NCBI GenBank assembly: GCA_050273025.1
Contig: CP158635.1
Span: 8,680,001 to 8,744,000 of the forward strand
DNA: 64,000 bases
Source: Cenococcum geophilum
Lineage: Eukaryota
Direction: 5' to 3'
Both the position numbers and the translations under genes were made by a program. Shown piece after piece: positions 2,109 through 37,105 of the stretch (within the stretch, counting starts at the first letter, position 1; every line of letters begins with the position of its first letter). Under the pieces are notes generated by a model. It made no database searches, was not told the origin of the DNA, and saw only the letters and a program-made list of their open reading frames with translations.

Positions 2109-5100
2109 CTGATTAGTGAGCGCGCACAGATCAGCAATTACTTGATACCTCCCCCCGAGCGATACTTAATAGCGACTACCTATTTAGACTCCTAGTACGA
2201 CCTACTAGAAGGTCGGAAGTCGGGGATTACGGACTATTACTAACTCTGTATACTTATTTAAGTCTTAGTACGGTTTACTAGAAGTTTATAGACGCGAATA
2301 TAGACCTTTACAGAACCCCCTACCCTTCTATAAACCACTACGGACCTACTAATTACCTTTACGGACCGTTATAAGACCTTATAGAAACCCCTTACCCTTC
2401 TGCAAACCGTTACGGACCTATTAACTGCCTTTACGGACCACTACAAAAACCCTTCTACCCGCTACGTACTATATAGTATGGCAGACATTAGCAAGTAAGT
2501 TAGCGAAGGTTAAAAGAAGTGGAGATAAGGAGTCGACGTTACGTCTATAAACGATGTTAACGACTATATTAGTTTTAAAATCCTTAAATATAAACACTTT
2601 AAGCTTATAAATAACGACCTGTAGGAGCAATACTAGGAAGACTTTGCGGACTTTACGGAAGCTATTTTTAAGGCCTATAACCCTATTACCATCCGTAAAC
2701 TATAAACCCTTTTATGTAACTAAGGTATATGGGTTAAAAGGGATAAACAAGTTACTGTTATATAGTCTTTATATAATATAATATATAAGAAAGACCAAAC
2801 AGAATAGACTAAAGAGAAAATCCTAGACTAGGTTAAAACCACTAAAGAACTCTTTACTTTTTCCAAACTTAATAGAATTGCCGGCCTTATACCTAACCCA
2901 CTTAACTAAATTTGTCCTATAAACCTAAGCAGTTTCGGAATTAATCTTATGGGCTAAAGTATACCTAGTACCTAAGTTACGGACTGTAATACCCCTGTAA
3001 CCCAAATTATAGACCGTAATACCCCCGTAAACTAAAATACGGACTAAACCCCTTCTGTTATTTAAGTTATAGTTTTATAAGCTATATATCTGTAAACTAT
3101 ATATCCATAAGCCGCATATCCGTAAGTTACAGATCCGTAATCTACCTAAGTAAAGACCTATGGTAAGGAGCTAGTAAACCTAGCTAAGCTCTATACTAAC
3201 AAATCTAAGTATAGCGGTGAAAATGATAATTTTAACTTTAAACTAACTATCTTTACGGACCTTTACTAGAAGGCTGATATTCCTAAATAGGAGTTTAGCT
3301 AAGCCTACTCTACTATGCTACGCGGCCTAGTACTCGACTACTACTACACTAACCTTAAGAGCAACCCCTATGGTGTTCCCTTTAATAAGCTATACGAAGC
3401 TACCTATAACTACTTTAAAGGACCGGAATATAAGCGTGATATCCTTACCTAATGGAATGCGACCAAGCTACGGACCGTAATTAATAAGAATATTAAAAAA
3501 TCGACTATAGAGTGCCTGCAAATTCTTATTAAAGACCTCCGGCACCTATAGCACGGCCTTAACGCTAAGCTTTAAATAGACGACTTCCTGTATAATAAAC
3601 TTATTACGGCCTACTAGGAAGTAGAGCCCTGCAAGTATACCTACTATAAGCCTGCAGATACCTTAGCTGGCCTTATTAATAATCTACGCTCCTCTATTAT
3701 AACGTACAAAGTCTTAAACCCACTAGGCAGCACTTAAGCCTTTATTACGGATATTTAATATCTATAAATAGACTTAGACGTCTACTTTACGGACCGCTAC
3801 TACCGCTAGTAGTACCTGTACCGACTAAGTCCAACCTATAACCCCCGCAGTAACCCCTGTACGAAAATATACCCCTATAGACGAACTAGCTAGAAGTGCT
3901 TTATATGCGGTAAGGAAGGATATTAGTCTATAAGGTATACCTAGGAAGAACATAATAAGTCTAGGAAGAGACTTAACAGCCGTATTAACTAGTTCATTTT
4001 GGAATACAAAGGAGAGGAAGTAGAAGAGCCCCCTAATAAGTTAATAGAAGCCCTTATAATTAACTTTAACTTAGACGCTTAGGAATAAGAGACCTTAGAG
4101 ATATTCCTAACCACTTTTAGACCTTTTACGGACAGCTAAGCCTTTAATATTATAACCGTATTAGCCAACCGTTTCTTTATACACTTAGTTACGCCCAAAA
4201 ACTATTCCGTAAGTACCCCTATTATAGATATTATAGATTATAAGCAGGACCCATTTGTATATATCACCACAAAACGCTATACCCCTAAGGAATTCTACGG
4301 TGTTATAATCGATATAGGTGCCTTTAAGAAGTCTACTATAGGCTATAGATAATACCTTGTATATAGGACCACTATAAATAACAATACGGATATTAATATT
4401 ACGTAAACTGGGGCCATAAACGTCTAATTTGGCATTGGCTTAACCGCATTAATTAGATTAGTTAAAGTTAAGACTTTAATTAGCCTAGTTAACTTCCACG
4501 TAGTAAAAGCGGACACCCCCTTCCTATTTTGTCTTATAGACATAGACAGGTTATAGGTGTACTATAATAATATTACGGACACCTTAATTAGCCCCGTAAC
4601 TGCCCTAGGAAGCAAGTATATTACCCTACTAATTATATAACGATTTAGACACCCGTTCCTTATATAGGGAAAGACTCTACGGACCTATATTTAGGAATCT
4701 TTCAACTATAACCCGTGCTACCTTAGCAGTACGGAAATCCACTGCCTGTACTGCCGTTTTGGCCACCTATTAGCCAAAAAGCTATATAGAGTCCTTAAAT
4801 GTTTTAGACACGACAATGTTAATAGGAAAGCTATTAACTACCTAACTAAATACTGCTCCTACTGCTAGAAATACAGACATTCTCTAGGCCGATTTAAGTT
4901 TACCCTTTATAAGGATCTTAACTTTAACTATTTAGTGTACGTAGACATTATATATATTAATGGCAGCCTAGTATTATATATAATTGACGAGGCAACCTAC
5001 TATTAAGCCGCCCGTTAGTTATAAAATATATCTATAAAATATACTTAGGATATTTTACGGACCTACTAGATTAATACGTACGTTAGACCTCCTAAATATA

Positions 5101-5823
5101 TTACCTACAACGCTAGTAGGAACTTTATTAGTAAGGAATTCTAGTAGTATACTACGGCTATAGCTATATTAACAAAAGCCGTTCTAGTTAAGGCGTATTA
5201 GTCTATTAGGCTTATTAAGCGAGCTTACCTAGCCTTATAGAGAGCGTATTAGATTATTACGGACGAATATAAGGATATCTAAAAGGAACTAGCTCTATAG
5301 ATGGCCGTAAAAGCCATTAACGACACTGCTGGCCCAGATGGACTAGTACCTACTCTCTTGGTCTACGGAGCCTACCCAAGGATAAGCAAACTAGATCCTT
5401 CTGCCCCGTTTATTACGGAACGAGCAGCCGTAATACAGAAGGTAATAGCTAAGATAGTTAAGCTACAGGCTAAACAAACTGTTAATAACGCCCTATACTA
5501 CCGTAACGGACCTAATACGACCTTAGTATATAACCTCCTGCTTAACTCTAAAGTCCTTATATAGCGTAAAAGCGGTAGCTAAAATGGACCCTATTATCTA
5601 CTAGCCGTAGAAAACGAGACGTGCTGTGTAACAGCTTCTTAGTGGGCTAACTAGCTTTAGAAGCGCGTCTATAAAACCCTACTTTCGGCCCGAAACTACC
5701 TATAACGTTAAGCCAGACGAACTAGAAGCAACTGCCGAACCAGACGAATTAGAAGCAACTGCCAAATTAAATAAACTAGAAGCACCCTTGCCTACCCTAA
5801 AAGTCCCCTAAAAACCCACTAAA

Positions 5824-6244
5824 TGTAACGGAGCCTTATAGTAGGGACTACGGTGGACTCGTTAATAGGCTAGGTATATAGGTATTGCAAGTAAGTCAAC
5901 AACGTAATAATAACTGGTGGAGTAGTTGCCCAATAGATTAACTCTAATTGTATTCTAAGAATCACTATAAGAAAGGAACTATCTAGGTAGGAACTAAGGG
6001 TCCTTAAATACACAACCGTACTCCTATAAAATCCTTCTTATACATAATATATATCTTATACATAAGGTATATAAGTTCCCTTTATTCCTCTTGTTTCTTT
6101 TATAGCACCTTATATAACCTTAATTACTATTCCTTGTTATATAGTTCTATGGGTTCCATCTTAGACCATACTTATATTAACCAACTAGCTTCTTCTAACT
6201 TCTCTCTAAGTAGTCATAATATTGTACTTAAAGCGTCCGTAACA
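5824..6244 (-). repeat. Gypsy copy A 3' LTR
   Basis: TG...CA ends; direct repeat of 13423-13843. Confidence 0.95.
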
Positions 6245-6352
6245 CTATCTCCCTCCTCTCCATCTTTGTCCTTAAAAATACCTAGTATCTCTAAGTTGTT
6301 TACTAGAGGTATAATATCCATTTAATTAATTTGGTTAATATTGTTACTTATA

Positions 6353-7036
6353 ATGCCTAAGGCTTCTTCTTCTTCACACGCGCAACGTCGTGCTCGCACT
6401 ATTACTGCAATATTATCGCTTAGTAAAATAATACCATCTCCGTGTTCTCGTTACTTAAGGGAGGGATTAGTATATATTACGCTAGCAAGTCCTTTATCTC
6501 AGCAACCCTCCTTTTATTTAGAGTGCACTAAAGCAAATATTTAATCGTCTTACGATGTCCGTTTTACTTCTAACGCTAAGTATACGCGTCCTATAACTCT
6601 TAATAGTCTTTAAGTTCCCTAAGTAATTTGTTATAGGGTTTTATATTCAATCTGCTACTGCAAAGCTTAATAGTAACCTAGCGCAGGCCCTTACTAAGCT
6701 TAAGCGTTCTTAGGATACGGAACAGAAGGCCCTAAATACTCATATTACGGCGTCTGCCCATTTACTCCGTCTTAAAAAGGTACGTAAGAATGTTTATTTT
6801 AAGGAGTGGAAACTTATAGAATAAGGTCTATAGGAACTTAGTAATAAAAAAACGGATTCTCTTCCAATAGAGAAGGAAACAACTCTAAATAGTTTAGCAG
6901 TCGCTCTTCCTAAGTCCCCTTTAGGTGGCTTATTCTTTAATAATTCCTCTTTATTAATATTACCTAACCTTTTCTCTTCTAATACTCCTGTACCTTTCCT
7001 ATAGCGTTCTTTAGATTCTCTAGTAGTTCCTAAGTA
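6353..7036 (+). pseudogene. Antisense accessory ORF of the Gypsy: Zn(II)2Cys6-like motif + intron + coiled coil (RIP-damaged)
   Basis: MPKASSSSHAQRRARTI... De-RIPed reading gives C-x2-C-x6-C-x13-C-x2-C-x8-C. Putative intron 6582-6636; exon 2 is helical (LAQAL.KL.R...LLRLKKVR). Conserved in copy B. Confidence 0.7.
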
Positions 7037-10000
7037 GTCTTATTATAGCCTATCCACTTTACTTCGTACTATGTTTTGTTATTAACATCCTTATAACTAA
7101 CGATCTTTAAAACTTACTATTTATCTTCTTCCTATCCTCTATACGTGTCTACTTTATAAACTAGTGGCTTAACATTTCCGTATACTGGCTCTAGCATTAC
7201 AATATACTATATAGGGTAGATCTTTATTTTGGCTAGTAGGTTTAACTTAAACATAACTGATAAAATTTTCTACGTAATTTTAAAAGGTCCTAGTCTAACA
7301 TAGTCCAACTTCTTACTTAGTCGTCAACTCTTGAAATTTTTGTGTAGTAGCTATACTTTATCTCCCTCCTTAAGATCTGGTCCCTTAGATCTCTTAGTAT
7401 CGTAGTACTTTTTCATTCTTTGCTGTACTATCTTAGCTATTTCCATAAGGTTTGTATAAAGATTTATTAAAGTCTCCATTCTTTACTTAGCTTTACTACT
7501 TATTTTCTTTACTTATTATAGCAATAATAATGTTCTTAGCTTATATCTATAATTCGCCTTAAATAGTAACGTACCTATTCCTTCTTATGGTATTACATTA
7601 TATATAAATTATATAACTGGTAATAGCGATACCCAATTATTCTATACGTAATTAATATAGTGCCTTAGATACTACTCTAGTGTCTAGTTTAATCTTTCTG
7701 TTTAACCGTCTGTCTATAGATAATATATAGTAGAAGTTACTACTTAAACTTCTTATTCCGCTAAAAATACTTCCTAAAATGCTGCTATAAATCTTAGATC
7801 TCTATCTAATATAATTTTGCTTAGTACTCTATATCTTATAAACACTTCTTTAACATAGATTTTAGCGACATCTTCCGCTAAGATTTCTTCCGTATAGGCT
7901 ATAAAGTATCCCCACTTTATAAGCTTGTCTACTATTACTAAGATTACGTTGTAATCTTATCCGGTAATAGGGTCTCTTAATTTTAGCAACTTAATAATAA
8001 AGTCCTATAATATAACCTCCTATAGTCTCTCTAGTATTTTAATAGGTTATAGCCCTCTATACGGCTTATACCTTATTAGTTTATTTCTTTAGTAATCTAA
8101 ACACTCTTTAGTGACCCTTCTAGCTATCCTTTAGATTCCGTTAATAATATACTCCTCCTAGAGTCTTAATACTAAGCCCATAGCTCCGTTGTGTCCTTAA
8201 ATTAATCCCTTATAAAAGTCCTCCATAAACTACTCTACTATGCCTCTTAGGATATACTTTGCTTCTTAATTTTTATATATATCCGACTATAGGTCTTCTA
8301 GTTATACTTCTAGAATCCTTTATACCTAAAAGCTTTCTAGTATTTTATAGACTTTCTTTTCTAACTTATTCTCTTATATTACTATAATCTTTAGATAATT
8401 ATACCTAATCAGTCCATCTATATCTTTTTGCAGTAAAGCCCCTAATAGCTTATTATTATTTTATAGTTTAGCCTTTTAACTTAACGCATTAGCTCACGTG
8501 TTGTCTATACCCTTAGTATACTAAATTTTGAAATAGTATTCTATAAGCATCTCTGCCCATCTAACCTATCTTTAGTTAAGTTTCTTTATTATTAGAAGTC
8601 CTATTAGGTTCTTATAGTCCGTTTTAACTACAAATGGTTTCTCTATGCCTTATAAAAACGCTCTCTATTTTTTTAGTACTATAACTATACCTAATAACTC
8701 CTTATTATAGATGTTATAGTTTAACTCTAGTAGTATTATCTTTTGACTATAGTATGCCACTAGATGCTATCTATCTGGATGCTTTTATATAAAGTATACT
8801 CCTAGTACAAAGTCTAATATATTTGTTTCTATAACCGTCTCTAGTCCTAGTTAATAGATCTTAAGAACTGGCTCCTGGGTAAATAACTCTTTGATTTTTT
8901 TAAAGAGTTCTTACTATTCCTCTCCCTATGCCTATAGTTCTTCTTTTTTTGTTAACTATATAAATGGTTTAATATCCTTTAACCATTACGCTATAAACCT
9001 TCTATAGTAATTACAAAACCCTAGGAATAATCTTAACTGCGTAACGTTCTCTAGTTCCTACCAATTTACTATAGCCTTAATCTTCTTTAGATCTATGCTA
9101 AGTTAGCCTAGTTTAATAATAAATCTAACGAAATCGGTCTTCCTAGTAAAGAACTCGCATTTCTCGATTACTACTGGCATCTATTCTTCCTATAGTCTCT
9201 TTAAAACCCATTTAACGTATTCTTCGTACTCTTCCTCGTTTATTAAGTAGATAATAATATTGTTAAGGTATACTATAACAAATTCATCTAAATATTCTTC
9301 TAATATATTATTAATACGCTTCTAGAATATTGCTAGCGCATTTATAAGCCTAAATTATATAACTAGTGGTTTATATAGTCCTTTCTTTAACCTAAAGGCT
9401 GCCTTTTATTTATTGCCTTCCTTAATCCTAATCTAATGATACGCCTATCTCAGATCTATCTTTATAAAGATTTGCGCATTACCTATCCTATTTTAAATTT
9501 CGCTAATTAAGGGTAAAGGATACCTATCCTTTCTAGTAATACTATTTAACTGTCTATAGTTGATACATAGCCTTAGTTTGCTATTCTTTTTTAGTACAAA
9601 TAGTACTAGATATCCTGCTAATAACTACGATAGTCTAATATATCCTTTTTGTAAGTTTTCTTAAATAAACTCTTTTAATGCTCTATCTTCTTCTTTAGTA
9701 AGCTTATAAATTAGAAAGAACCTTAGACTTATTCCTAGTTCTAATTCTATCTTATAGTCCTATGCTATATACTCTAATAGCTTTTTACTCTTAAGTAACT
9801 ATAGTTTCTTGCTATACTTATAGTATCTTTTTGGTATATAGCTTAGCCCTTTTTCTATTTCTTTGTAGGTCGCTCCTACTTAATACTATACCAACTTAGC
9901 TTATTGTCATATCTTACGGCGTTGTATATTTCTAATATCGACCTAACCTATAACCTAATTAATCTTTGGATTGTATTCCTATAACTAAGGCATTCCTAGT

Positions 10001-13000
10001 ACTGCCTTATTATTCCCTAATAGTAATATATTAAAAGACATCTTAACTAGTCTTCCTTCGATGGTTAACTGAATAGGTCTTATTTTAAAATTAATAATAC
10101 CTCCTCTATAGGCTATCGGATCTCCTAAAATTGTTACTAATAGGTAAGAACATTCCTTTTACCTATGTAGTAATCCTATTTTTTTTACTACTGCTAGCGA
10201 GATATGGTTCCTTATTACTCCACTATCTATTAATACCTTAAACTATTAATCTTACCACTTAATTTATAAATTTAGGTATTGTCCTTAAATTCCTTTAAGG
10301 GTTTAAGGCTCTACTACTGGCTCCCTTTGGTCCTATAGGCCTCTACTTTTCCTAACTATTAGCTGCTAGATTCTATTTATACTTAGTCCAACTTAGGCCA
10401 ATACTTAGTTCGTTTTTTATCTTTAATATACTATAGACAGGTATTCTCTAAATATTCCCACCATTATTATCCATCTAGGCATTATTCTATAAGGAATCTT
10501 TCTGGTTAAAGTATTAAGTCCCCTTATTTTTAAACTTCTACTAGGTGCCAACTATATATATATTTAGCGTTTCTATATTTCGCCTTGTCCGTTATCTAAT
10601 ATATCCTTATTAAATACTTTTAATTTTTGTTCTTTAGTACTCTATGTATATTACACGCATCATCCATATATGCTATCTACGATAGTGTGTAATATGCTTA
10701 ATGTCTTAGGTTAACTTTCGGCTTATCCTCGTCCTTAAGTTTAAACCTTTCTCGTATTAATCTAAGCGTCGTAACTTCGTTTATAGGTACTAAGATTCGC
10801 CTTTTACTTCTTTAGTCCTCTAATTACTCCTTTAGATCTTTTAATGTTATAATTAAAGCCCCCTTAATATAAGTTATAGCCTTCTCTATAATTAGGTAGT
10901 CTTAGACAACTTTCTCGTCCAACTATATATAGAAATCTTCCCACTTATCGTTATGTTGTTGCCTATACCACTTTTAATATAGCTACTTAAGTATATACGG
11001 CTTGTCCGTAAGGAAATATCTCTTTATTACTGCGTTATAACAGCCTTTAGTATATCGTTCTTCGAACCTAGTAGGAATCCCTAGATCCTCTTCTTATTCT
11101 AGTTTAGTAAGCCACTTAGCTCTTAGCGTGCCTATTCTAGGCCTATTAGTAATTCTTTATACTAGCGCTCTGTCCTTTATACGTCCTAATATACTAGATC
11201 TCTTATCTAGTTTCTGTTCTTGCTATAAGGTAATTCTTGCCCTAAATTCCTTTATAGTTTCCTTTACGTCGCGTCTTACGAGTAGATCCTTAAAGTTTTC
11301 GTACTTCTTAATCTTAGTATTAACTTTTTGATCTTTAGGCTAAACACTATATTCCCCTAGTAAGTCCTCTGGGTCTATATATCTATCTCCTAGTCTAATT
11401 ACTGTTTACGCTGTAGATTCTCTAATCTATAAAGAAGCCTCTTACCTCTTGCTTATAGGTGTCCTAATTTATGCTCCAAATTCTTAACCCCTTAGACTCT
11501 TTAATCCTAAGCTTGCTTTTAACTTAAGCTTAGCCCCTACCTTAGTCCAACTAGGCTTAACTAGTGTCCTTATCTCTTCTTAAGAGTCCTAGATCTTACT
11601 TATCTTATCTTAAGAGTCTTATACTATTAGGAATTCTTGTCCCAAGCTCATTTATATATCCTTAAACTAAGCTACTACTCTACTCCATCGGTTTCTGTCC
11701 GTTATAGGTTTTTAAGCTTACCTTATCTCGTCTTAAGAATCTTAGTTGTCTCTTATCTCGTCTTAAGAATCTTAAGCCTTTAGCTTTTTGCCTTTATTAA
11801 GTAGTAAGCTAGCACTAGCAGTCGTCTAATTGCTTAATTATTTCTAAATATTACTCCTTTCGTCTTATAAAGCGATGGATACCGTATTTAACGGTATTAT
11901 AATACCCGTTACTAAACCTTGCTCTATAGCGGTTTTAGTCTCTACTTCTATTACGTTATTAAGGTTTAGATACCCCTAGTTAGTTCCTTTACTATCCTTA
12001 TTACTATTAATTAATAAGTACTCCAACTCCATTATTATTATTACTAATCTTTATCCGTATATTACTGTGATATCTTAATCTAGCTTATAAAGTCGATCTT
12101 ATTCTTTATCTAACTCTTTAGTTCCTCTAAGTCCCTTTAACTCTAGCTCTTATAGCCAATAGCTTGCACTATACTTAGCGTCTTTATAAATTTGGCATGC
12201 GTTGTTATAACAAAACGTAAAACTTCTAATTAAACATTCTTTTATTCCTCGCAGCGCATTATTGTCCCTCTATATATATATGTCACATACTACTGGTCTA
12301 GTTCCCTTTATTGCATAGTAACTCTAACCATCTTTATAATCCCTCGCGAAGTAACCCTATTTTCTATAATTTATATAAGCTCCGTCTCTAAACCATTAAC
12401 TTTATTATAGAGTCCGCCTAAACGTCTTCTGCTATTAAGATCCCTGGTTTAGCCTATGCTTTTTAGTCCTATAATCACTAGATCCTTAACCTCTAGGTTT
12501 CTATAGTTTCTTACTCTATCTCTTATAGGCTTCTTTAGTGCCACTTAGGTCTATTAGCTTTACGCTATACCATAATTTCTAATTTAGCTTTAGTTGTTAC
12601 GTACTTTGCGTCTTATATAACTATAGAACTTTATCCTAGCCCTTCTTAGCCTATTCCCTTTGGAAGATCCTATTGTTAATCTTAATCGCTTAATCTATTA
12701 ATTCCCTTAGGGTATCCGCATCTTCTATCAGAATAATTACGTCCTAGACTTTAGCCTTAAGTCCCTGTTTATACTGTGCCATAAGCGCCTTATTATTCCA
12801 CTTAAGTTATATAGCTAGCGTTTGGAATTATATTGTGTACTTAATTACTAAAGTCCGTTGCGTTAGGTCCTAAAGCTTTCTTTCCGCTATAGTTATTGCT
12901 TCTAGGTCCCCGAACATTTGTATAAGTCGCTCTATAAATTTATTCCAGCTTAAAAACATAAACCGTACTTCCTGGTTTATTATTATCATTCCATTTACTT

Positions 13001-13422
13001 ATATCTCTGTAAGGTAAGGCTTAAACTATTTAAGTGCTCTTCCTAACAAGAATAATCCTACATATACTACTTAATCCATAGTTATTGCCAGCTTTGCTCC
13101 TTTCTGCGTAACCTTAAAATATATTTATATAAGGAATCCTTTAAGCTTTAATCTTTCTCCTAAGAATCTTTCAATCAATAGTAACTTAACCTTTACTACT
13201 CCTATCCCATTAATTCTATTTTTAAGTGCCGTATTATCTCCCATTAGCTAATCAACTATTATTTATAACTGTCCTACTGTTATAAGTTGTTATAAGTTAG
13301 TGTTTACCATACTGGTATTATTACCTAATCCTAACATAGTTGCCGCCGTTAATGGCGTTGTGGTGGCTGCTTTTAGTAGCATATTATTCGACTTATTAAA
13401 ACCGTAACTATAGTAGTAATTA

Positions 13423-13843
13423 TATAACGGAGCCTTATAGTAGGGACTACGGTAAACTTGTTAATGGGCTAGGTGTATAGGTATTGCAAGTAAGTCAATA
13501 ACGTAATAACAACTAGTGGAGTGGTTGCCTAATAGATTAACTCCAATTATATTCTAAGAATTACTATAAGAAAGGAACTATCTAGGTAGGGACTAAGGGT
13601 CCTTAAATACACAACCGTACTCCTATAAAATCCTTCTTGTACGTAATATACGTCTTATACATAAGGTACGTGAGTTCCCTTCGTTCCTCTCGTTCCTCTT
13701 ATAGCACCTTATGTGACCTCGGTTACCATTCCTCGTCACATAGTTCCACGGGTTCCATCCTAGACCGTGCTTGTATCAACCAACTAGCTTCTTCCAACTC
13801 CTCTCCAAGTAGTCGTAACATTGTACTTAAAGCGTCCGTAATA
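13423..13843 (-). repeat. Gypsy copy A 5' LTR
   Basis: Direct repeat of 5824-6244, less heavily RIPed. Confidence 0.95.
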
Positions 13844-15992
13844 CTAAACCTACTAAACCTACTATAAAGCGTAGTTAAGGACGCCCTTAAAAGCACCCTA
13901 TAACTAAGAACCCTATAATAGAGAATTACCTAACCTCCGCAGGAATATCTGTAAGGTAACCTCCGCCTATAAATATATTAGTTCTAATATAAAAAACCTT
14001 GTTTACGGACTTATAACGTAAAGAGATTAACGGACTACTTAAAAAGGGTATTTTTGCGGTTATAATGGAGAGAGACGTTCCGCAAGGCGTCCGTATATTT
14101 AACTTACGCTTTATTAACGAAATTAAGCACCCTAGTACTAATAAAGCTTTTAAAAAATCAAGGCTTGTTATATAAGCCTATAATGACTAAGGAAAGGACT
14201 TAGTCCTTATGTAATCGCCTATAATTTAATAAGTTAGTTAATGGATTATACTTATACTTACGCCTAGACTATAGCAAAGTAAACCCGTAGCTCTTTACCT
14301 ACGGGATATCTCGTAAGCCTATATATAGTCTAATACCTACCTAAGTAGGGATATCTTTATACGGCCACCCCCCGAGCTTAACCTATAACTAGGAATAATC
14401 CTATGGGTTATAAAACCTCTATATGGAGTACCGGAAGCTAGAAACCATTGGTTTAAAATATACTATTAGCACTATATTAGTAAACTTAAAATGGAATAGT
14501 CGACCTATAACCCCTACCTCCTATACAGCCTATTAAACGGCCTTAGTATTATTAGACTCTAAATAGATAATACCCTCTTCCTAGTAGACTAAACCTTTAC
14601 GGATACTAAAGAAACTAAACTATAAAAGGCTAAGTTCTTAGCAAAGCCGTAAGAGTAGTTAACTAAGTAAAATCTAATTAAGTTTAATAGAGGCCTAATT
14701 ATATAAAAGGGTAACTTAATTAAGCTAACTTAGGAACGCCAAGCTTAAAACCTAAAGCCTATTATAGTAAAGCCTATGGACCTTACTAGCTCCTATAAAG
14801 AGACCCGCAAGACTGTAAATATAAAGGACTAATACGTTATATAGCGTATAAGAGACGCCTATATTGCTATAGTCTGCCAACCTAAATCTGCCTATAATTT
14901 ATCCTTTGCGGCCCAGGTAGTAGATCCGTAAGAAGAAAATATTAAGCAGCTTAATAAGCGTATTTAGTGGCAAATTAATAATATAGTAAGGGGATTTACT
15001 TTTGTACCACTAGACCTAAGTTCCCTTAGCTTACTAGTATTTATAGACGCCTCCTTTGCTAATAATAGAGACCTATTATTATAAATTGGCTTTGTAATTG
15101 TACTTACGGACCGTAATTAGAACGCAAATATACTATACTAGTCTTTAATTAAGTGTAAATAAGTAACCTATAGTGTACTAGCTTCTAAACTATATATACT
15201 AGCTTATAGCTTTAATATAGCAGCCGTAATTAAATTAATGGTCCAGAAGATTCTATAACTAGAGCAGTTACCCCTAATTTTATGTACTAATTTAAAGTCC
15301 CTTTATAACTGCCTAGTTAAACTAGGTACGATATAAGAGAAGAGGCTTATAGTTAACCTAATGTGCTTACGTTAGGCCTACAAACGACGTGAAATTGCGG
15401 AGGTTAAATAGATTAGCGGCGGAAATAACCTAGTAGATGCTATGACTAAGGTAAAGCCGTATTAAGCCCTTAAAACCCTAATTAACACGAATAAGCTTAA
15501 CCTAAAAGTTATAAAATGGGTAGAACGGGACTAACGGAGTACCTACGGTACGCCTACGGCCCGTTGGAAGGCCGTACGGCTTATTATACGGCCTATTCTA
15601 CGGACCGTAAGCTATTAGGTGGAAAATGGTGGAAAGCTGCGACGGAACTTAGTGGACTTACGTGACCTGCCGAATTCTGCCAGGGTAATTGAATTGACCA
15701 ATTACGATTTTCCATCCCCGGGATGGAAAATCGCCATTGGCTCGCTTAGCACTAGCGCCTTAGCGGCCCTTAAGATCTAACTTATGGCTCATCTACTGCC
15801 CGTCAAAAGGCCGTACGGTTTATTTTACGGACCGTAAGCAGAACCTACGGCCAGCTTAGGGTACCGTTTGGAAGGCAGCCTAGACGGCACCTTGGGGGAG
15901 ATTTCCTATGTATTTTCCTTTGTGTTTTATGGTTTTATTAAAGCAATTACGGAGGCTGTATATAGGTGGCTTCATTTTTCAAGTACCGCTAG

Positions 15993-16263
15993 TGTATAAT
16001 TATAGCACCTATTGTACCAACCGCGTGCTTACGCGTTCGGTACACTAGGTACGCGTTTACGCGTTCAGTGCACTAACCACTCGCTTACGCGTCTGGTGCA
16101 CTTATAAAGCACTAACTAATTAGGGGGGAGGTGCATTAGTATATAGACCACGTAGTCTACTTCATATAATCGACAGTCACCATTATCCAAAAGAGCATAC
16201 GATACTAAACGTATTTCGTGCCCCTGGATCTGACTCACTCGTGCTATTAAATTAGTACGAACA
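15993..16263 (+). repeat. Copia 3' LTR
   Basis: TG...CA ends; direct repeat of 1838-2108. Confidence 0.95.
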
Positions 16264-17090
16264 ATAATGTATATATAATACAACTTCTCTAGGTAAACTT
16301 TTTATTAAAAAATTATTATATAATTATTGTTTTTATAGCGTTACTAGGGTGCTTATTAGAGCCTAAGCGAAAATAAGCGAAAATAGGAAAATTAAAAAAT
16401 CTATTAAGTTGGGTATTAAGTTGGGTATTAAGTTGGGTATTAAATGCGTAATTGGCGTAGGCTATACGTAGGCTATGTATCAAACACGTCAACGATAGCC
16501 ATTTGGCAGCCATTTGGCCTAGTTAGCAGTATTTGATTTTTACTTAATAGGTAGTTTAAATGTTAGCTGACGAATACTTTTCCAATATACTAGTAGGATA
16601 ATTAACGTTAAATTAAGCTCTATAGAGCCCTATTTAGATCCTTTACTAAAGGCTCAACTATACTAAAGTTCTATATAAAAGATTATAAAGAAGGTAGAAA
16701 AGCGGCTGCGACTTAAATATAGAGAGGGCTATATTTAACTAGTAAAAGATATTTCTAAGCCTTTATAGAGCTAGAAGCTACGCTAGCGTAGAGCTTAATA
16801 CCCTCTAATTGGCTAGTTTATTAAATTATCTATTAAATATATATATTGTATTTTATTTAAAGCGTTTACCGTTTAGCGTCTAGCGTCAAACTTTATGTTT
16901 TATTAGTAGGCGTTAAGCTAAACTGCCTAATTAGGAATGTGTAATTAGCTATATTACTAGCCTCTATATATAAATACAATTCTAATTTAAAGTTATAGAC
17001 CTCTAAATATAATTATAAATAACCTATATTACTTATATAAAGTAAAAAGCTAATTAATATTAGCTCTATAAGGCTTATATAGCAACTCTA

Positions 17091-23299: not shown

Positions 23300-26295
23300 C
23301 TCGTCGCTAGCTTAATTTAAGTAGATAGACTATATCCCCGTAACAAGTAGGGTCAATATAAGGCACTACAATATTAGAAAACGCGTTAAGATAGGGCAAA
23401 TAGCGGGGCAACGTCGGCTTTAACTTACTAACTAATGGTAGGGAGTTATGTTAACAATAAGGTGCGTTTAACGTGGAAAATAGGCTATCTCACTGTTACG
23501 GACGCTTTAAGTACAATGTTATAACTACTTAGAGAAGAGTCGAAAGAAGCTAGTTAGTTAATTTAGGCACGGTCTAGGATAGAGCTAATAGAGCTATATA
23601 ATAAGGAATAGTAGCTAAGGTTATATAACGTTATACGCAGTATACGCAGTATACGCAGTATACGAAGGGAACGTATATATAATATGTATAACATATATAT
23701 TACGTATAAGAAGGGTTTTTTAGAAGCATAGTCGTGTATTTAAAGGACCACAGTCCCTACCTAGATAGTTCCTTCCTTATAGTAATTCTTAGAATATAAT
23801 TAGAGTTAATTTATTAGGCAACTACCCCACTAGTTATTATTACATTGTTAACTTTAATTAGTATTACCTATATACCTAGCCTAATAACGAGCCTATTGTA
23901 GTACTTGCTACAAGGTTCCGTTATATAATTACTACTTAGTTATGGTACTAAATATAGAAAGTCAAATAATATGCCACTAAAAGCAGCCACTATAACGCTA
24001 TTAACGGCGGCAACTACTTTAAGGTTAGGAGGTAATACTAGTATAGCAGATACTAACTTATAGCAACCTATAACGGTTGGATAACTATAAGAAATAGTTA
24101 ACTAACTAACGGCAAATAATATAACGCTGGAAGAAAGGATTAATGGGGTAGGAGCAGTAAGGATTAAGCTACTATCGATTAAAAGATACTTAGGAGAAAG
24201 ATTAAAGCTTAAAGGATTTCTTACGTAGACATACTTTAAGGTTATATAAAAAGGAGTAAAGCTGCTAATACCTATAGATCGAATAGCATATACGGGGTTA
24301 TTTCTATTAGGGAGGGTACTTAAGTAGTTTAAGCCTTACCTTACGGAAATATAAGTAAACGGAATAATGACCACTAATTAGGAGGTACGGTTTATGTTCT
24401 TAAGCTAGGAAGGGTTTACGGAGTAATTTATATAAATATTTAGAGACCTAGAGGCAGTAACTATGGTAAAAAGAAATCTCTAAGATATTACGTAACGAAC
24501 CTTAGCAATTAAGTATATAACGTAGTTCTAGACGTTAGCGATATAAGTTAAGTGGAATAATAAGGCGCTTATAGTATAGTATAAGTAAGGACTTAAGGCT
24601 AAAGTTTAGGATATAATTATTCTAATAGAAGATGTGGATATCCTATAGGAGTTAATAGATTAAGTAATTAAGATTAATAATTAGATCTACTAAAGGGAAT
24701 AGGCTAAGAGAGGTTAGGATAGAGTTCTATAGTTATATAAGGCGTAGAGTACGCAATAACTAAAGCTAAATTAGAAACTATAGTATAGCGCAGAGCTAAT
24801 AGGCCTAAGTAGTACTAAAGAAGCCTATAAAAGATGGAGTAAGAAACTATAAAAACCTAGAGGTTAAGGATCTAGTAATTATAGGACTAAGGAGTAGAGG
24901 CTAAACTAGGGATCTTAGTAGTAGAAGATGTTTAGGCGGACTCTATAGTAAAGTTAATAGTTTAAAAATAAAGCTTATATAAATTATGGAAAATAATGTT
25001 ACTTTATAAGGGATTATAAAGATAGTTAAAGTTACTATATAATAAAGGGAACTAGACTAGTAGAAGACATATATATATAGAGGGATAATAGTATACTACG
25101 AGGGATAAAGGAATATTTAATTAAAAGTTTTACGTTCTGTTATAATAACGTATACTAAATTTATAAAGACGCTAAGTACGGTATAAGCTATTAGCCGTAG
25201 AAGCTAAAATCTTTAGAGTGTAGGGGAACTAATAAACTATTATACAGATTAGATATTAAAGACGATAAGTTTAATATAGGCGAAATATTTACAGATAATA
25301 AGGTAATAAAGGTAGCTTACTAGGAGCGTATAAACCTTAGAGAAGTTATATTAGAAGTAGAGACTAAGACCACTATAGAGCAAGATTTAGTAACGGGTAT
25401 TATAACACCGTTAGATACGGTATCTATTACTTTATAAAATAAAAGGAAGAGTATCTTATAAAGATTAAGTAAGTAAACAACTGCTAGTGCTAATTTATCG
25501 CTTAATAAAGGTAAAAAGCTAAAGGCTTAAGATTTTTAAAATAAGATAAAAGACGATTAAGACTTTTAAGACAAGATAAGGTATACCTAAGGACCTATAA
25601 CAGACAAAAACTAATAAAGTAGGGCAGTAGCTTAGTTTAAAGATATATAAATAAGCTTAGGATAGAGTTTCCTATAGGTATAAAACTCTTAAAACGAGAT
25701 AAGTAAAATTTAAAACTTTTAAGATAAGATAAGAACACCTAAGCCTAGTTAGACTAAGGTAGGAGTAAAGCTTAAGATAGAAGTAAGCTTAGGATTAAGA
25801 ATCCTATAGAACTAAGACTTTAAGACACGAATAAGGATTATTAATAAGATTAAGAAGTAAGAAGACTTTAAAGATCCACTTATAAGACGCGAAAAGAAAG
25901 AAACTATAGAGGAATTTAGAGTATAAATCGCCTTATAGCAAGATTAGAAACTAGATAAAAGCTTTAGTATACTAGGCCGTATAAGGGACAAATTACCTAT
26001 ATAAAGGATTACTAATAGGCCTAGAATAGGCATACTAAGAGCTAAGTGGCTTACTAAATTAGAATAAGAAGAGGATCTAGGGATTCTAACTAGGTTTAAG
26101 AAACGACATACTAAAGGCTATTATAATGCAGTAATAAGAAGATACTTCTTTATAGATAAGCCGTATATACTTAAGGAGTTGTACTAAAAGTGGTATAGAT
26201 AACGACATAATAATAAATAGGAAGATTTCTATATATAGTTAGATAAAAAAAGCTATCTAAGACCACCCAATTATAGAAAAGGCTATAAGTTATAT

Positions 26296-29200
26296 AATAA
26301 TAATAATAATTCATTGCTTAACGTCCGATTTGGATCCCTACTGGGCCTACGCGGACTACTCCTTATTTACATATGGGGAGAAAACTCTATTTAAGAAAAA
26401 TGAGAAAACCCCGTGATCCATCTCCCCGCCTTTTAGGACTCGCCTACTTAGCGCCTACGAGTCGCCTATAGTGCTCTACTACCTTACTATTTAACCTCCT
26501 TAGGAACTACTGCTGCCGTAACAAGCCTACGGACACGCTAGTATCACAAACTTTTACTCTACTACTGTAGAGTTACTAGGGGGCACCTACTGCTCGCCCC
26601 CTTGCCTTTTATTACCATTTCCCTTATAACCCAGAACTAATTTAGCACATTTTAACTAATAAGCCACTGGGTAACCGCCTTAAGGCCTTTTTATATTAAG
26701 AGTAGTGTATTATAGTTCTCTATGCTAGCTACTAAGAGCATTATTTCTTAATTGGTGTATAGGGGGCATAGCAGTATTACATATTTTGGTGTCTGTCTTA
26801 GCTAGCTATATTCGCATCTTAGGCTACCTACTAGGACACCCACCCAGTAAAGCCAATCTTTTAGTCCTATTATTCCTGTTCTTAAGAGTGTTGCTATTAT
26901 ATTTTCTACCTTTATTAGGCCTTCTCGGAGCCCTTAGGTATTTACCCCCCATGGCGTTAACTATGCTATAGCTTGGGTTTGTCTTGCCTAAGTTAGCCTC
27001 TATACCTTTAACTCCTATTCGCCTCTCTAGCGTTAGTCCAACTAGTATTATATTGCGGTAGATGGTTTTCTAGCGTTCTTACATGTTCTACTTTAGCTCC
27101 TTTCTCTATCTTACTGTTGTCTTTGCTGACCTCTTACGCGTCTCCCTTCCTCCTCTATATGGGCCTAGGCCCTAAAGCGGCACCATTCTTCTTCTGCTTT
27201 CTTTACCTGTTTCTCTAATATCTCTTCCCTACTTTAGGGTTGTTGGTTTGTTCTCCTATAGGGCACCCTAGGGTCCCTCTATAGTTTACTTAGGCGTGTC
27301 TTAATATACTTTATAATATTAGAGTTGTGTTTATTTTGCGTTCTTTATATTGCAGTGGCTTTAATATATAACTATAGGGGGGGAATATTGGATTCCTTCT
27401 TAAGCAGTGCTATGGCCGTTTACTTATACCCGCCTATAATACTCTAGAGGTAGGCTGTTTAGACCTTTTGAAGTAGTTTAAGGAGTAATTTTAGGGGGCC
27501 CTTCTTAGTTTCTCCAATGGCCCAGATACTAGATCTATATATTATAGTTAGCCGGACGACTGCTATATATAGTAGGCGTGACCTCTAGAAGTATGGACCC
27601 TATATAGAATTAACAATCCTAGATAAAGCGATGAACTGTGCTTGGCCTTTACGGGCCGCTTGCGCCGCATATGCGCTCTACTGGAGCTTACTATCTACCC
27701 ATACTCCTAATACCCTTAGGCCCTAAACTAGTTGACCCCTAAAGCCTTAGATGTAAATTATATACTAGAGATCTGCAGATTAGTTGCGTTTTCTTATAAA
27801 ATAGATTAGCTGGTATTTCTCTGGTAAAAATTAGACTCTATAACGTTTTGCCTACTCTATATAAGTGTTATAGGCTTTCTCTAGTATTCTGCAGTTCTCT
27901 GCGGCTGTTGGCCCGTATGTGATTAGGTTTATATTATCAACAAAGCCTATTCCCTAGGTCGCCCCTTCCTTAAAGGAGTCGAGCAGGTTGCTTATAAAGA
28001 AAAGGAAGAGTATAGGCGAGAGGGGTAATCCTTGTAGTATTCCTGTTATAACTGCAATAGGGGGGCTCTAGTATCCGCTAAAGACTAGTAATATTTCTTT
28101 CTAGCCTGTAAACCCTTAGATAAATTATATAATCTATTCTGGGAAGCCCTTTGCCCTAAGGATATGCAAGAGACGCTCGTGGGGTATATTATCATAGGCA
28201 CCATTAATATCTAGGCTAAGCATTAATACTATAAAGTCCTTTTGCATCGCCCATACAGATTTAATAGTAGTAGCGAGTAGCGTAAGTACTAATAGTGTTA
28301 AGCGGTTCTTTTTTACCCCTATTTGGCTTTGTGGTAGTAGGGCGTATTCCTCTACCGTATCTACTATGCGTTCCGCTATTACCCTTTCTAAGATCTTACT
28401 AAGGGTGTTTTCTAAGGCAATAGGGCGGTAGCTTCCTAGGATTAAGTAATCTACTTTACCTTCTTTTCATAGAACAACTGTTGTTATAGATCTTCCGAGT
28501 CGCGGGTAGTAGCCTATAGCAAAGCATGCTCTGGCTACATCTATAAGCTAAAGTGCTATAAGTGGCCCACAGGTTTTTAGGGCCTTATTTAGAATCCTAT
28601 CTAGTCCTAGTGTTATATTATTTAAAAGGCGGCTAATGGTTCTAGCTATTTCCTCTATTGTTATATCGCTGTTGACCTACAGGTGAATTACCGGTGTTTC
28701 GCCCGTGATATTACTGAGGTCTGCTAGAGTTAGTTGGGGGAAGAACCTTTCTATAAGGATCTTTGCCTTCTTATTGTTGTTGTTTATGGCCTGTAATTCT
28801 CCTACTCTTTATAGGGGTAGTAGGTGTAGGTCTTCTGCTAGGCGCCCTACCTTTTTCTTTACCTATTTCGCTATATCCTAAAGGCCCTTATTATAGGGGA
28901 GGCTTAGGTTAGAAGTATGCTTATTTATAAACCGTCTCCAGTTATTCCTTACTTCTTTTTTTAGGGTATTCTTTAGCTGGTTTCTTGTGTCTTTATATCG
29001 TCTCTTATCTTTAGGGTTGTAGCTACTTGTATATTTCCTTCTTACTTATCGTTAGCTAGCAACCAGAACTGCGCATTATATAAACCATGCGTATCGCGCG
29101 TAGGGGCCCGGTTTTAAGATCGGGCAGTACTCTTTTAGCCTATTTTTAATTGCTGCCTAGATCCTTTCTAGTCTTCGGTCGATTTCCTTAGGGGTAGTTA

Positions 29201-31912
29201 ATAGGCCTCGCTCGTTTAGTATTAGGTGGATTTCTTCTAGGTCTTAGAGTTGTTATTTAACTGCATTAAGGAAACTATCTGTCTTAAGCTTCCTTATTAC
29301 GTATCTTTTTCTATTTAGTTGCGCTTTAGTATCTAGATCTAGCTATATCTGGATAGGGATATAGTCTAGGGTAAGTGCCTATTCTTCTTCGGGGTTACAC
29401 CTTTCGAGTCTCTAGTATAGGCCTTTATCTATAAATATGAGGTCAATTATACTTCTAGCGGTGCCTCATTACTATATAATTGCTCCTAGGGGGGTAGCTA
29501 GCTTAAGGCCCTAGATATCTATAGCTCTTAGTAGGCACTCTAACTGTTAGTCTATAGCAATATAAATACCCCCCTACCGCGGGTGGTAGAGGTTTATGTC
29601 TCCTAATAGGATAGACTCTATACCTTTGGTTTTCAGTAAGCTTATTACCGATATAATATTCTCTATTTATAGGACCCCTTCGACCCTAGGGTTATATACA
29701 TTAATAATTTGTACCGGTCCCCTATATATTTAGATTATTATAACTATAATGTCTAGGTTAACTACCTGCCATAATTATAAGAACAGGCTAATAGCCTTAC
29801 TAATTATAAAGTATATACATATAGCTGCTTTTGGTTCATATAGGAGCTAAAATCCTTAGGGGCAGTATGTTAATTATATAAAGGTATTATAATACGGCTC
29901 TTATATAGTAAGGATATGGTGTTTCTCTAGGTCTAAACTGTCTAGTAGGGGCCTTACAAGGCGGTGGTTTGTGTTGCCGCAGTTATACTATATAATGAAT
30001 AGGTAGCGGACCCCCGGTAAGGGTCCTTCGACTCTCCTTTATTCCTTACTTCTTCTATTTCTACTTTCTCTAGGATATTTAGAGCTTCTATCTCTTATGT
30101 CTACACCCTAGTTACTACTCATTTTATATAGAGCTTTCTATTCCCGTATTTTGTGTTCCTATTAGCGCTTCTATATCTAAATCTATTATTATTACCGGTT
30201 CTTCCCTTATTCTTACTAGTCGGCTATATACCCTTTATAAGTCGGCTGCAAATGTTATATTTACCACATTAAGTCTAATTCTTAATTATCCTGGTCTTAA
30301 GCCTGCTGTTACTGTCTATAGGGGTCTTCCTACGGGGCGTCCTCTCCCTTATATCCCTTGTGACCCTTATATCCCTAATCGGTTTGGTAATGTCACGCGG
30401 CGTCACTTTTAGCCTGTTAAGGCTTAGGATAGCTGGCCTAGCCCTCTAGTATTAAAGGTAGGAAACGCTAGGAAAGCACCTACGTCCCCCTAGCTTATCG
30501 CCTATTGTTTCCATTTATATAACCTAGCGTACAGTTATTCCCGTAGCTATTAAGCCCTTACCTTCCGTCTCCTGTATTTAATATAGTCTTCTCTCTCCTA
30601 CGCCTTATATGTGCTTTAGTGGCAGTTCGCGTATTTTATTTAGTCTTAATTTAAGCAATGTCTTATATTATAGGGGCCTGCACAGTGGCCGTAGTATACC
30701 TGTGCTGCGCATATAGATTAGGTGTGTCCCTATTATATATAATAATAGCATCGTTTTAGGCGTAGTCTATAGTTATAGAGCCTTGTATTATATATAAGGC
30801 CATTTATAATTATTCCTTTTTGGATAAGGAGTTTTTGCATTCCTAGTATATGTATGCTAACAATAAGGGAGCCATGCATTCGTCCAGCGTCTCCCTAGCA
30901 AGTCTTTGGCGACCCTTATATCCTCTTATTATTCTCATTATATGCTTAATTTGCATTTTCCTATTAAAGCTATTGGATTCGGGTGATTTCAAGTCCTAGT
31001 ATAAGGCGTTCCGTTTGTCTTACTATCTCCTATATAATTGCTGTATTGTCCGCCTAGCGTCCCTTTTCTACCCTAAGGCTTATAGGAACCGCTAGGACTT
31101 TAACTAGGTAATCCTCGCGAAGTACTTTTATGCCAATACGTTCTCCTAGCCTATCCCCTACCCTTACGGCTTATTCCTTTGCCTATTAGTCCTTTAGGGT
31201 AACTCTAATGTCTCCGCTCTTAAGGTATTAGACTATAATAGCGTTATGGACCTCTTTATATATCTTTATAAGGACTTCTGTTTCTAATTATCCCCTAAGC
31301 CCCTCTACTTATTCTGTGTTTAGTTATATTATAATTATATACCCGGTTATTAACTTAAGGGGAATAGGTTCCCTGTGCTATAAAAGCGCAGCTATAGTAG
31401 CCTAGGTGCGGTTCACCGGTAAGGAGGGATTATGCTTATTTTTAATTTTGCTTAGCCGTTGGAGGATTTAATTAAGGGTTTACTGGAGGGGCGCCTAAGG
31501 TTCGCTAAACTAGCGGAGCTATTCTGCTAGCTATATTAGTTTGTTATAGCTAACGGTTACTCCCCTATAATTCTAGATACTAGACGCGTCTAATAGGCTT
31601 TATATTTTATTAGATGCCTTCTTAATAGAGGTATTTCCGCTTTATAGTATGGTATTCGCCCGTTTTTGTTGTAGAGGGCCATTGCTGGGCGTAGTTCTAG
31701 CGGTTGCGCGCAAGTGCGAGCCACCGTCGTTCGACGTGTGCCTCCCCTGCGATGCATGCATCTCAGGGGGATTCTCTGGGTGTTTTTCAGGGTTCTTTTG
31801 GTTAGTTTTGGTCTTTTTAGGCCGGGTGCAGTAAGAGCTCTAGTTCCGTTAATCTTTGACGTTTCTTATAATTGTTGGTATATAAACTAATAATATAATT
31901 ATTTTAGGAGAC
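26296..31912 (-). mobile_element. Tad1-like LINE, apparently full length (5.6 kb), RIP-inactivated
   Basis: 15-bp TSD GGCTATAAGTTATAT (26281-26295, 31913-31927), present once at the empty site in Gypsy copy A. (ATT)n 3' tail at 26296-26310. Minus-strand ORF1 with Cys/His knuckles near 30600-30760; endonuclease (ILTI.EPY near 29900); RT (GI.QGLPLSPILF, GFVD near 27930-28045). Confidence 0.92.
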
Positions 31913-34900: not shown

Positions 34901-35893
34901 AGAGACTATAAGAAGTTATATTATGGGACTTTATTATTAAGTTACTAAAGTTAAAAAATCCTATTACCGGATAAGATTATAACGCGATCTTAGTAATAGT
35001 AAATAAGCTTATAAAGTAGGGATACTTTATAGCAGACACAGAAGAAATATTAGTAGAAGATATCGCTAAAATCTATATTAAAGAAGTGTTTATAAGACAT
35101 AGGGTACTAAATAAGATTATATTAGATAGAGATTTAAGATTTATAGCAGTATTTTAGGAGGTATTCTTAGCGGAATAAAGAGTTAGAGTAGTAACTTTTA
35201 CCGTATATTATCTATAAACAGATAGTTAAACGGAAAGACTAAATTAGATACTAGAACAGTATCTAAAATACTATATTAATTATATATAAAACAATTAAGT
35301 ATTACTATTACTAGTTATATAGTTTATATATAATATAACACCATAAGAAGGAATAGGCATATTACTATTTAAGGCAAATTATGGATATAAGCTAAGAATA
35401 TTATTATTACCATAATAAGTAAAGAAAATAAGTAGTACAGCTAAAGAAAAAATAAAAACACTAATAAATCTTTATACAGACCTTATAGAATTAGTAAAAA
35501 GAGTATAGAAAAGAATAAAAAAGTACTATAATACTAAGAGATCTAAAGGACTAAATCTTAAGGAGGGAGATAAAGTGTGGCTACTATATAAGAATTTTAA
35601 GAGTTAATAACTAAGTAAGAAGTTGGACTATATTAAATTAGGACTTTTTAAAATTAAATAAAGGATTTTACTAGTTACGTTTAAGTTAAACCTACTAGCT
35701 AAAATAAAAATCTACCCTATATAGTATATTGTAATACTAGAGCTAGTATATAGGAATATTAAGCTACTAGTTTATAAAGTAGACACATATAGAGGATAGA
35801 AAGAAGACAAATAATAAGTTTTAAAGATTATTAGTTATAAGGACATTAATAATAAAATATAGTATAAGGTTAAGTAGATAAGCTATACTAAGA

Positions 35894-36578: not shown

Positions 36579-36686
36579 AATAAGTAACAATATTAACCAA
36601 ATTAATTAAATAGATATTATACCTTTAGTAAATAACTTAAAGATATTTTAAATCTTTAAGAATAAAGATAAAAAGGAGGGGGATAG

Positions 36687-37105
36687 TATTACGGACGCTT
36701 TAAGTATAATAATGTAACTACTTAGAGAAGAGTTAAAAGAAGCTAGTTAGTTAATTTAGGCACGGTCTAAGATAGAGCCGATAGAGCTATATAACGAGGA
36801 ATGGTAGCTAAGGTTATATAACATTATAAGTAGTTTACGCAGTGTATAAAGGGAACGTATATATAACACGTATAACACGTACATTACGTATAAAAAGGAT
36901 TTCTTAGGAGTACGGTCGTGTATTTAAAGGACCACAGTCCCTACCTAGATAGTTCCTTGTAGTAATTATTAGAATACAATTAGAGTTAATCTGTTAGGCA
37001 ACTACTCCACCAGTTGTTATTACGTTGTTGACTTTAATTGGCATCACCTACACACCTAGCCCAATAACGAGCCCATCGTAGTACTTGCTACAAGGTTCCG
37101 TTACA
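36687..37105 (+). repeat. Gypsy copy B 3' LTR
   Basis: Direct repeat of 23494-23925; ends TTACA. Confidence 0.95.

Follow-up and report, generated by a model that had tools for sequence, protein, structure and literature searches.

A small gene, read on the strand opposite to gag-pol and lying between pol and the 3' long terminal repeat (LTR) of a Ty3/Gypsy retrotransposon, is the subject of this analysis. It occupies positions 6353-7004 (+ strand) of a 64,000-nucleotide stretch of the Cenococcum geophilum genome (contig CP158635.1, positions 8,680,001 to 8,744,000; referred to below as the window), which contains two copies, A and B, of one Ty3/Gypsy family, both heavily mutated by repeat-induced point mutation (RIP) and both non-functional. 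What is to be read there is very probably a RIP-killed copy of a genuine two-exon antisense accessory gene of a Ty3/Gypsy family that probably bears a chromodomain, specifying a protein with six cysteines and a long helix. The antisense gene is real and was formerly under selection: it must once have been selected because transversions among its copies concentrate at the third codon positions of both exons and do not do so in the intron.

In copy A, with its gag-pol on the - strand, the antisense gene opens with an ATG at 6353, the LTR edge (6244) being 109 nt away (the preliminary description of this DNA had placed the start about 110 bp from the 3' LTR). It is divided into exon 1 (6353-6581), a proposed intron of 55 nt (6582-6636) and exon 2 (6637-7004), which ends with a TAG at 7002-7004. 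All 75 aligned copies (see below) have this stop codon unchanged, and the relatives P0005 and P0006 end at the same residue; the end at 7036 that was originally assigned to the open reading frame (ORF) lies 32 nt too far downstream. Copy A keeps the ATG, has one premature stop in exon 1 (TAA, 6542-6544) and three in exon 2 (at 6711, 6822 and 6831), four in all, retains two of six Cys codons and has AT in place of the GT intron donor. In copy B the gene occupies 35927-36578 on the - strand, the ATG has become ATA, there are eight premature stops, and only one of the six Cys codons is left. The ancestral gene is reconstructed as exons of 229 and 365 nt, approximately 198 codons, with the 55-nt intron between them. 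Its placement between pol and the 3' LTR, on the opposite strand, is the placement by which brtn-type genes (discussed below) are recognized; it had been described for copies A and B, and it is seen in both of them and throughout the 75 aligned copies, as is, in copy A, the overlap of the 3' end of the antisense ORF with the tail of pol that had likewise been pointed out.

The copies used for comparison were drawn from metagenome contigs, 601 stretches of which encode a relative of exon 1. The best 80 of these 601 were used, and all 80 loci match window positions 6245-7100 at 72-84% identity. Seventy-three of the 80 span the whole stretch and, together with copies A and B, make up the 75-copy alignment on which the counts and diversities below are based; the 7 partial loci were left out. 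Among candidate proteins, 27 of 28 match as relatives of exon 1. A profile search over 1.84 billion representatives returned 241 hits at E<=1e-3 (145 at 1e-10), a word-index search with a second profile returned 271, and 293 proteins were aligned to the family hidden Markov model (HMM) for site spectra. The database hits all come from JGI or ENA, and none is named other than as 'hypothetical protein'. A search of viral contigs found no relative. (A 23-residue match to P0006 in a 130-kb viral contig, L081, was taken as chance.)

RIP makes transitions only. Selection was therefore measured on transversions alone (as purine/pyrimidine diversity), RIP being unable to create them. In exon 1 the transversion diversity at codon positions 1, 2 and 3 is 0.032, 0.014 and 0.102 (Mann-Whitney p=1.9e-7); in exon 2 it is 0.047, 0.031 and 0.120, and in the part of exon 2 outside the pol overlap it is 0.081, 0.032 and 0.208 (p=1.4e-8). 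In the intron, transversion periodicity is absent in all phases. The same distribution can be read from the window's own two copies, which differ by 26 exonic transversions, 22 of them at position 3 (all 9 of those in exon 1, and 13 of the 17 in exon 2). The preliminary description had drawn attention to synonymous third-position transversions between A and B, and these stand, including those at 6418 and 6472; it had also reported insertions and deletions in the intron, of which there are none, the two introns differing by 8 transitions and 6 transversions that are spread over all phases. Its suggestion that the protein had been subject to selection is borne out by the excess of third-position transversions in the 75 copies.

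The six cysteine codons start at 6443, 6452, 6473, 6515, 6524 and 6551 (+ strand), and the cluster that they delimit (6443-6553) spans 37 residues with the ancestral spacing C-x2-C-x6-C-x13-C-x2-C-x8-C. In copy A the six sites now read C, Y, Y, Y, C and Y (only two Cys codons survive, as had been noticed, and the other four are TAT or TAC). All six codons are either TGY or TAY in 75 of 75 copies, which vindicates the spacing that had originally been proposed on reverting the four Tyr codons of copy A. Second-base G occurs at the six sites in 38, 22, 8, 3, 60 and 21 of the 75 copies. Among the HMM-aligned relatives, Cys or Tyr is found in 288/291, 289/292, 290/290, 272/274, 271/274 and 244/246 (98.9-100%). 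The fourth site, which is Cys in only 3 of the 75 close copies, is Cys in 92 of 274 in the wider set; all 232 motif-bearing relatives span 37 residues with invariant spacing, and three natural sequences, P0186, P0128 and P0094, have kept all six Cys. Since RIP makes G>A changes (TGY to TAY) and never the reverse, Cys is ancestral at all six sites. A consensus with Tyr at these positions had been named as something that could refute the proposal; as judged by these codon spectra, the ancestral protein carried six Cys. Four neighbouring columns have an R/C/Y/H/Q/W spectrum, as expected of mutated CGN (Arg) codons. Codon 6542-6544 (TAA in copy A, TGT in copy B) was considered as a seventh Cys and rejected: its RIP spectrum is also of the Arg type, marking it as a mutated CGT codon.

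The 55-nt gap at 6582-6636 shifts the reading frame by +1, and codon periodicity is lost inside it. The first base of the donor (6582) is G in 6 of the 75 copies and A in the other 69, in agreement with the originally proposed boundaries and RIP-altered donor. Because an in-frame TAA is conserved at 6624-6626, the acceptor cannot lie further upstream; a CTAAG/CTAAT motif lies 14-18 nt ahead of the acceptor AG. The strongest support for the intron is the colinearity of the two exons in P0083, a 110-residue relative from a 2113-nt JGI contig, and the least mutated one found (5 of 6 Cys). Exon 1, as far as its last full codon, is matched by residues 1-49 of P0083 (E 4e-17), and exon 2, beginning with its first full codon, by residues 52-110 (E 1e-10); two residues separate the two parts, versus 58 nt in the window. 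On this alignment, exons 1 and 2 form one protein, whether P0083 represents a spliced transcript or an intron-less DNA copy. A different interruption was noted in a 348-nt contig, which is found in the RNA-labelled runs X19 and X20 (perhaps the same data set entered twice) and skips 46 nt (6780-6825, with GT..AG ends on the + strand). This skip would shift the reading frame and is absent from the DNA run X1 and from all 75 sequences of the alignment; either cryptic splicing of a + strand transcript or a deletion in one copy could account for it.

The protein is laid out as a short basic/hydrophobic N-terminus, the 37-residue six-Cys cluster, an unbroken helix of some 60 residues or more and a proline-rich, hydrophobic and conserved C-terminus; exon 2 supplies the long helix and the conserved C-terminal motif, which ends ...NTP[VI]PFL. 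AlphaFold predicts the helix with high confidence: in the model of P0083 (57 rows) it runs from residue 47 to residue 109 (63 residues), at a predicted local distance difference test score (pLDDT) of 94-98. Thus, the helix that was originally placed after the cluster is retained, but not its claimed richness in heptads, which does not exceed that of shuffled sequences: a crude a/d score was reached by 149, 44 and 388 of 500 shuffles for P0002, P0004 and P0006, respectively, and is not significant. For P0006 the structural neighbours are long helices of a generic kind. As an architecture, a long helix preceded by a presumptively zinc-binding cysteine cluster has good support. Membership in the Gal4-type Zn(II)2Cys6 family, for which the preliminary description had argued, is possible.

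How the six cysteines would be used is the point on which readings diverge. They might form some other zinc site, for example two C-x2-C knuckles on one zinc with two spare Cys, in a protein that binds RNA or protein (genomic RNA, Gag or integrase) and not DNA. The two C-x2-C pairs are 20 residues apart with hydrophobic residues between them, and conservation of the C-terminal motif goes along with that of the pol tail. No known family is recognized: a Pfam search of the window translations found no match at E<=10, Zn_clus included, and neither profile nor single-sequence search matched any PDB sequence. Positive evidence for such an alternative fold is nil, however, and what weak structural and Pfam leads there are favour Zn_clus; we regard this reading as a serious candidate that falls somewhat short of an even chance.

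The alternative is a true Gal4-type binuclear cluster with its helix serving as a dimerizing coiled coil, which would make the protein an element-encoded dimeric DNA-binding regulator. The Zn_clus pattern is C-x2-C-x6-C-x(5-12)-C-x2-C-x(6-8)-C. Five of the spacings that are invariant in the 232 relatives fit it; the middle loop, x13, is one residue over the range. Two Lys usually follow the second Cys, and the succession of a cluster and a 63-residue helix is the Gal4-type order. Zn_clus (PF00172) is also the Pfam family that is most often encountered, by 5 of 148 relatives (best E 0.073), no other family being matched by more than 2. All of these matches are sub-threshold: the gathering score of Zn_clus is 21 bits, all the tested sequences are RIP-damaged, and the best scores are 10.9 bits for P0247 and 9.4 bits for P0083, in partial alignments that pair the first C-x2-C(-x6-C) of these proteins with the second half of the profile. 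The profile check that had been suggested for this assignment goes against it. The three sequences with all six Cys, P0094, P0128 and P0186, have no Zn_clus hit at E<=10, and no Zn_clus gene was found among 14 long ORFs of the window.

For P0186, the ESM Atlas contains a low-confidence model, all 8 of whose neighbour rows are Zn(2)-C6 clusters, at template modelling (TM) scores of 0.39-0.51, which are under the tool's bar; searching the Atlas by features yielded no usable match for P0186 or P0006. AlphaFold gives the six-Cys part of P0186 (148 rows) a mean pLDDT of 56, with values below 50 over most of the cluster, and gives the cluster of P0083 a pLDDT of 46-57 (below 60 in both models, therefore); Foldseek found no match to the P0083 model in the PDB. 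Hydrophobic residues follow Cys3, Gly predominates three positions ahead of it, and the middle loop, at 13 residues, is longer than usual for the family; the heptad test, too, is not significant. We regard a Gal4-type cluster as a reasonable candidate, but as less likely than not.

The weakest alternative is that there is no antisense gene at all, the open frame and its conservation being by-products of cis-acting sequences (the polypurine tract (PPT) or the 3' untranslated region (UTR)) or of coding on the - strand (the pol tail or a sense ORF3). The two coding strands meet at 6801-7004, the overlap of the antisense ORF with the pol tail on the opposite strand (delimited by stop counts and a hard-stop scan). 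A chromodomain-like motif is found in the pol frame at approximately 7100-6985 (Y-x-V-K-W being readable), although the Pfam Chromo profile has no hit at E<=0.001 in the mutated copy A. For every stop of the pol frame from 7071 to 6816, some copies have Gln, Trp or Arg instead. The codon at 6799-6801 is a stop in 70 of the 75 copies and Trp in 4, and a hard TAA follows at 6772-6774. Judged by these codons, pol probably ended before RIP at 6799-6801, and at the latest at 6772-6774, some 60-75 codons past the chromodomain. The last ~200 nt of the antisense ORF were probably dual-coding with the pol tail, because the pol frame is open to one or the other of these stops; the near absence of transversions at 6905-7024, where transversion diversity is very low at all three codon positions, fits.

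Periodicity alone gives no strand, and a test based on four-fold degeneracy was therefore used. (A six-frame hard-stop scan, tried as a strand test, was too lenient to separate the strands and was replaced.) In exon 1, wobble transversions fall on four-fold codons of the + strand (23/51 versus 2/24, p=0.001), whereas a - strand reading gives 10/39 versus 15/36 (p=0.96). Position 2 is also least variable on the + strand reading. For exon 2 outside the pol overlap the test (25/38 versus 8/15) does not separate the strands, and inside the overlap it is weakly positive (11/40 versus 2/27). Thus, while the absence of an antisense gene would be compatible with the exon 2 result, with a pol frame that stays open to 6799-6801 or 6772-6774 once RIP stops are discounted, and with a - strand frame that shares the wobble position and lacks a hard stop across exon 1 (by the lenient criterion), it is very improbable, given that exon 1 follows + strand degeneracy only, that the periodicity changes frame exactly over the 55-nt aperiodic gap, that the start and stop codons are conserved and that distant relatives conserve the + strand protein, including one that is colinear with both exons; for exon 1 it is largely refuted.

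The preferred reading, a two-exon antisense accessory gene killed by RIP, also has to contend with observations that weigh against it, the failure of the four-fold test to separate the strands in exon 2 outside the pol overlap being one. There is no intact copy among the 75 aligned: none is free of premature stops and none has all six Cys. The stop at 6648 appears as Gln in just 3 of the 75. Three word-index searches and one exhaustive profile search found no intact relative, and every database relative is RIP-marked. The sequence of P0083 may come either from RNA or from an intron-less DNA copy. The joint of 6581 to 6637 was not seen in the raw RNA-seq run X21, which gave 6 reads, and contigs from RNA libraries (of unknown strand and origin) cover the intron unspliced. 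Finally, zinc binding, DNA binding, dimerization and the promoter are putative.

Genes of this kind are not new, and in this respect the novelty implied at the outset is lost to a precedent of 2011: to judge from the available descriptions, brtn-like antisense accessory genes were already known. The brtn gene of Boty-like Gypsy elements was published in that year (Zhao et al., Virology 417:248, as cited in PMC8365987, PMC7264820 and PMC4227169). Boty of Botrytis and Sclerotinia is described as having an antisense ORF of unknown function between pol and the 3' LTR (PMC7264820); brtn is said to belong to BcGypsy1 and to be absent from the current annotation (PMC8365987); a Boty-like element with gag-pol, chromodomain and brtn has been recorded (PMC4227169), as has a Monilinia transcript that is similar to Pol and BRTN (PMC5987419). 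Set beside brtn by these descriptions only, the Cenococcum gene is alike in being an extra antisense gene in the pol-3' LTR interval of a fungal Gypsy element, one that bears a chromodomain in the Boty-like case and probably does so here. The two also share the lack of a known function, and brtn, too, is missing from standard annotation (PMC8365987). They differ in that the descriptions of brtn mention no cysteine cluster, intron or helix, and in that the copies considered here are all RIP-dead whereas a BRTN-like transcript is on record in Monilinia (PMC5987419). A full-text literature search found no paper in which an antisense gene from a fungal Gypsy element is connected with a zinc cluster or a binuclear cluster; the 2011 brtn paper was outside its coverage and may describe such features.

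Antisense ORFs between pol and the 3' LTR are also described for the plant LTR retrotransposons Grande, RIRE2, Retand and PvRetro13, where they are reported to be conserved about as well as the other genes of the element and to have no known function (PMC7264820). Position and orientation are the same as in Cenococcum; the hosts are plants, and the descriptions do not mention a cysteine cluster. According to the same source, Botrytis and plants have provided examples of antisense accessory genes in LTR retrotransposons for over ten years, none with an assigned function (PMC7264820). The six invariant cysteines and the long helix provide a biochemical handle here, and an element-borne zinc-dependent nucleic-acid-binding factor thereby becomes testable. 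The family is very large (the 601 stretches come from one metagenome collection, and its proteins form hundreds of clusters) and its past selection is clear. Transversion-only statistics and C/Y site spectra have recovered a gene that RIP has obliterated in all the copies available. The practical meaning for the window is small, because both copies are dead.

Among proteins of established function, the closest parallels are to the Zn(II)2Cys6 transcription factors (Gal4, Ppr1, Put3 and Hap1), which have the same layout of six Cys, C-x2-C-x6-C ... C-x2-C-x(6-8)-C, followed by a long helix, and toward which the recurrent weak Zn_clus matches and the weak structural neighbours point. In contrast with these factors, the Cenococcum protein aligns with the family only partially and below threshold, has a hydrophobic loop of 13 residues and a fold that is not predicted with confidence, is only ~198 residues long, lacks a regulatory middle domain and is encoded by a transposon. 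HBZ of human T-cell leukaemia virus type 1 (HTLV-1), a vertebrate retrovirus, is an antisense, spliced basic leucine zipper (bZIP) gene that is expressed from the 3' LTR, with promoter and function proven. The likeness to HBZ is a formal analogy: an antisense retroelement gene next to the 3' LTR, with an intron, whose small product combines a putative nucleic-acid-binding part with a long helix. There is no homology, and for the Gypsy gene the promoter and function are conjectural.

The following sequence of events can be proposed. The element family would carry its accessory gene in the pol-3' LTR interval on the strand opposite to gag-pol, and transcription would proceed outward from the 3' LTR side. 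The six cysteines of the product would bind zinc, and the protein would act as a nucleic-acid-binding factor supplied by the element, which might modulate the element's own expression or its integration, in formal resemblance to HBZ. A bolder version, in which a large fungal chromoviral Gypsy lineage encodes a miniature Gal4-like factor from a spliced antisense gene with dual-coding last ~200 nt, the factor binding its own LTR and tuning transcription or silencing as the fungal counterpart of HBZ, strikes us as unlikely. Were this version true, transposons would be carriers, and possibly the source, of the fungal-specific Zn2Cys6 DNA-binding module.

The host elements remain to be described. 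Copy A occupies 5824-13843 and has the marks of Ty3/Gypsy: LTRs with TG..CA-type ends, a target-site duplication, a PPT and the order gag-reverse transcriptase (RT)-RNase H-integrase. Its LTRs were identified as direct repeats, the 3' LTR at 5824-6244 (reading TGTAAC...GTAACA on the + strand) and the 5' LTR at 13423-13843 (its ends read directly), both in - strand orientation and 90% identical over the 300 nt that were compared (3' LTR versus 13422-13721). The 5-bp target-site duplication, CTAAA, can be read directly on the left (5819-5823) and on the right (13844-13848). The gag-pol remains extend over 6799-13422 on the - strand, as delimited by Pfam matches, stop counts per codon and the hard-stop scan. 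Read-through translations of that strand match Retrotrans_gag, RVT_1, RT_RNaseH and SH3_Tf2-1 (the SH3 domain of Tf2-type integrase) in Pfam. Copy B lies on the + strand in two parts, 23494-26250 and 32063-37103. The ~5.8 kb of other DNA that interrupt it (26251-32062) have a higher G+C content (0.39-0.40) and are presumably another insertion. The RIP index (TpA/ApT) is 1.63-1.65 in the elements versus 0.72-0.76 in the genic DNA of the window. Among the substitutions in the 75 copies, C>T occurs most often ahead of A and G>A most often following T; at an average TpG site, 68% of copies now have TpA.

The PPT, purine-rich on the - strand, adjoins the 3' LTR at 6245-6262 and forms one end of a spacer (6245-6352) that separates the LTR edge from the antisense ATG. 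The spacer is the most conserved segment, with the lowest transversion diversity of all (purine/pyrimidine diversity 0.013) and no codon periodicity in any phase; it is a putative 5' UTR or promoter-proximal segment of the antisense gene. In many RIP-mutated relatives (P0057, P0094, P0097 and P0186) a + strand frame extends from within the LTR through the PPT as far as the antisense ORF and yields conserved peptide-like strings such as ...SLSLK...ISKL.IRG.... In copy A the corresponding frame (6008-6325) ends at 6323-6325. This is probably conservation of the PPT and spacer at the level of DNA and not coding.

Copy A is itself nested in another LTR element, which is marked by 276-nt direct repeats, 93% alike, at 1838-2113 and 15993-16268; the + strand ORFs that flank the insertion (4100-5800 and 14017-14175) are integrase-like and RT-like. 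Elsewhere in the window, a pair of 183-nt direct repeats (45992-46174 and 49701-49883) lies in DNA of normal G+C content, separated by 3.7 kb and with 98% identity; a small element of recent origin may have these as its LTRs. Host genes are found where the window is unmutated: an amidase fragment at 38567-39424 (+ strand, E 1.2e-14) and a homeobox KN/TALE protein at 55029-57509 (+ strand, E 1.2e-14).

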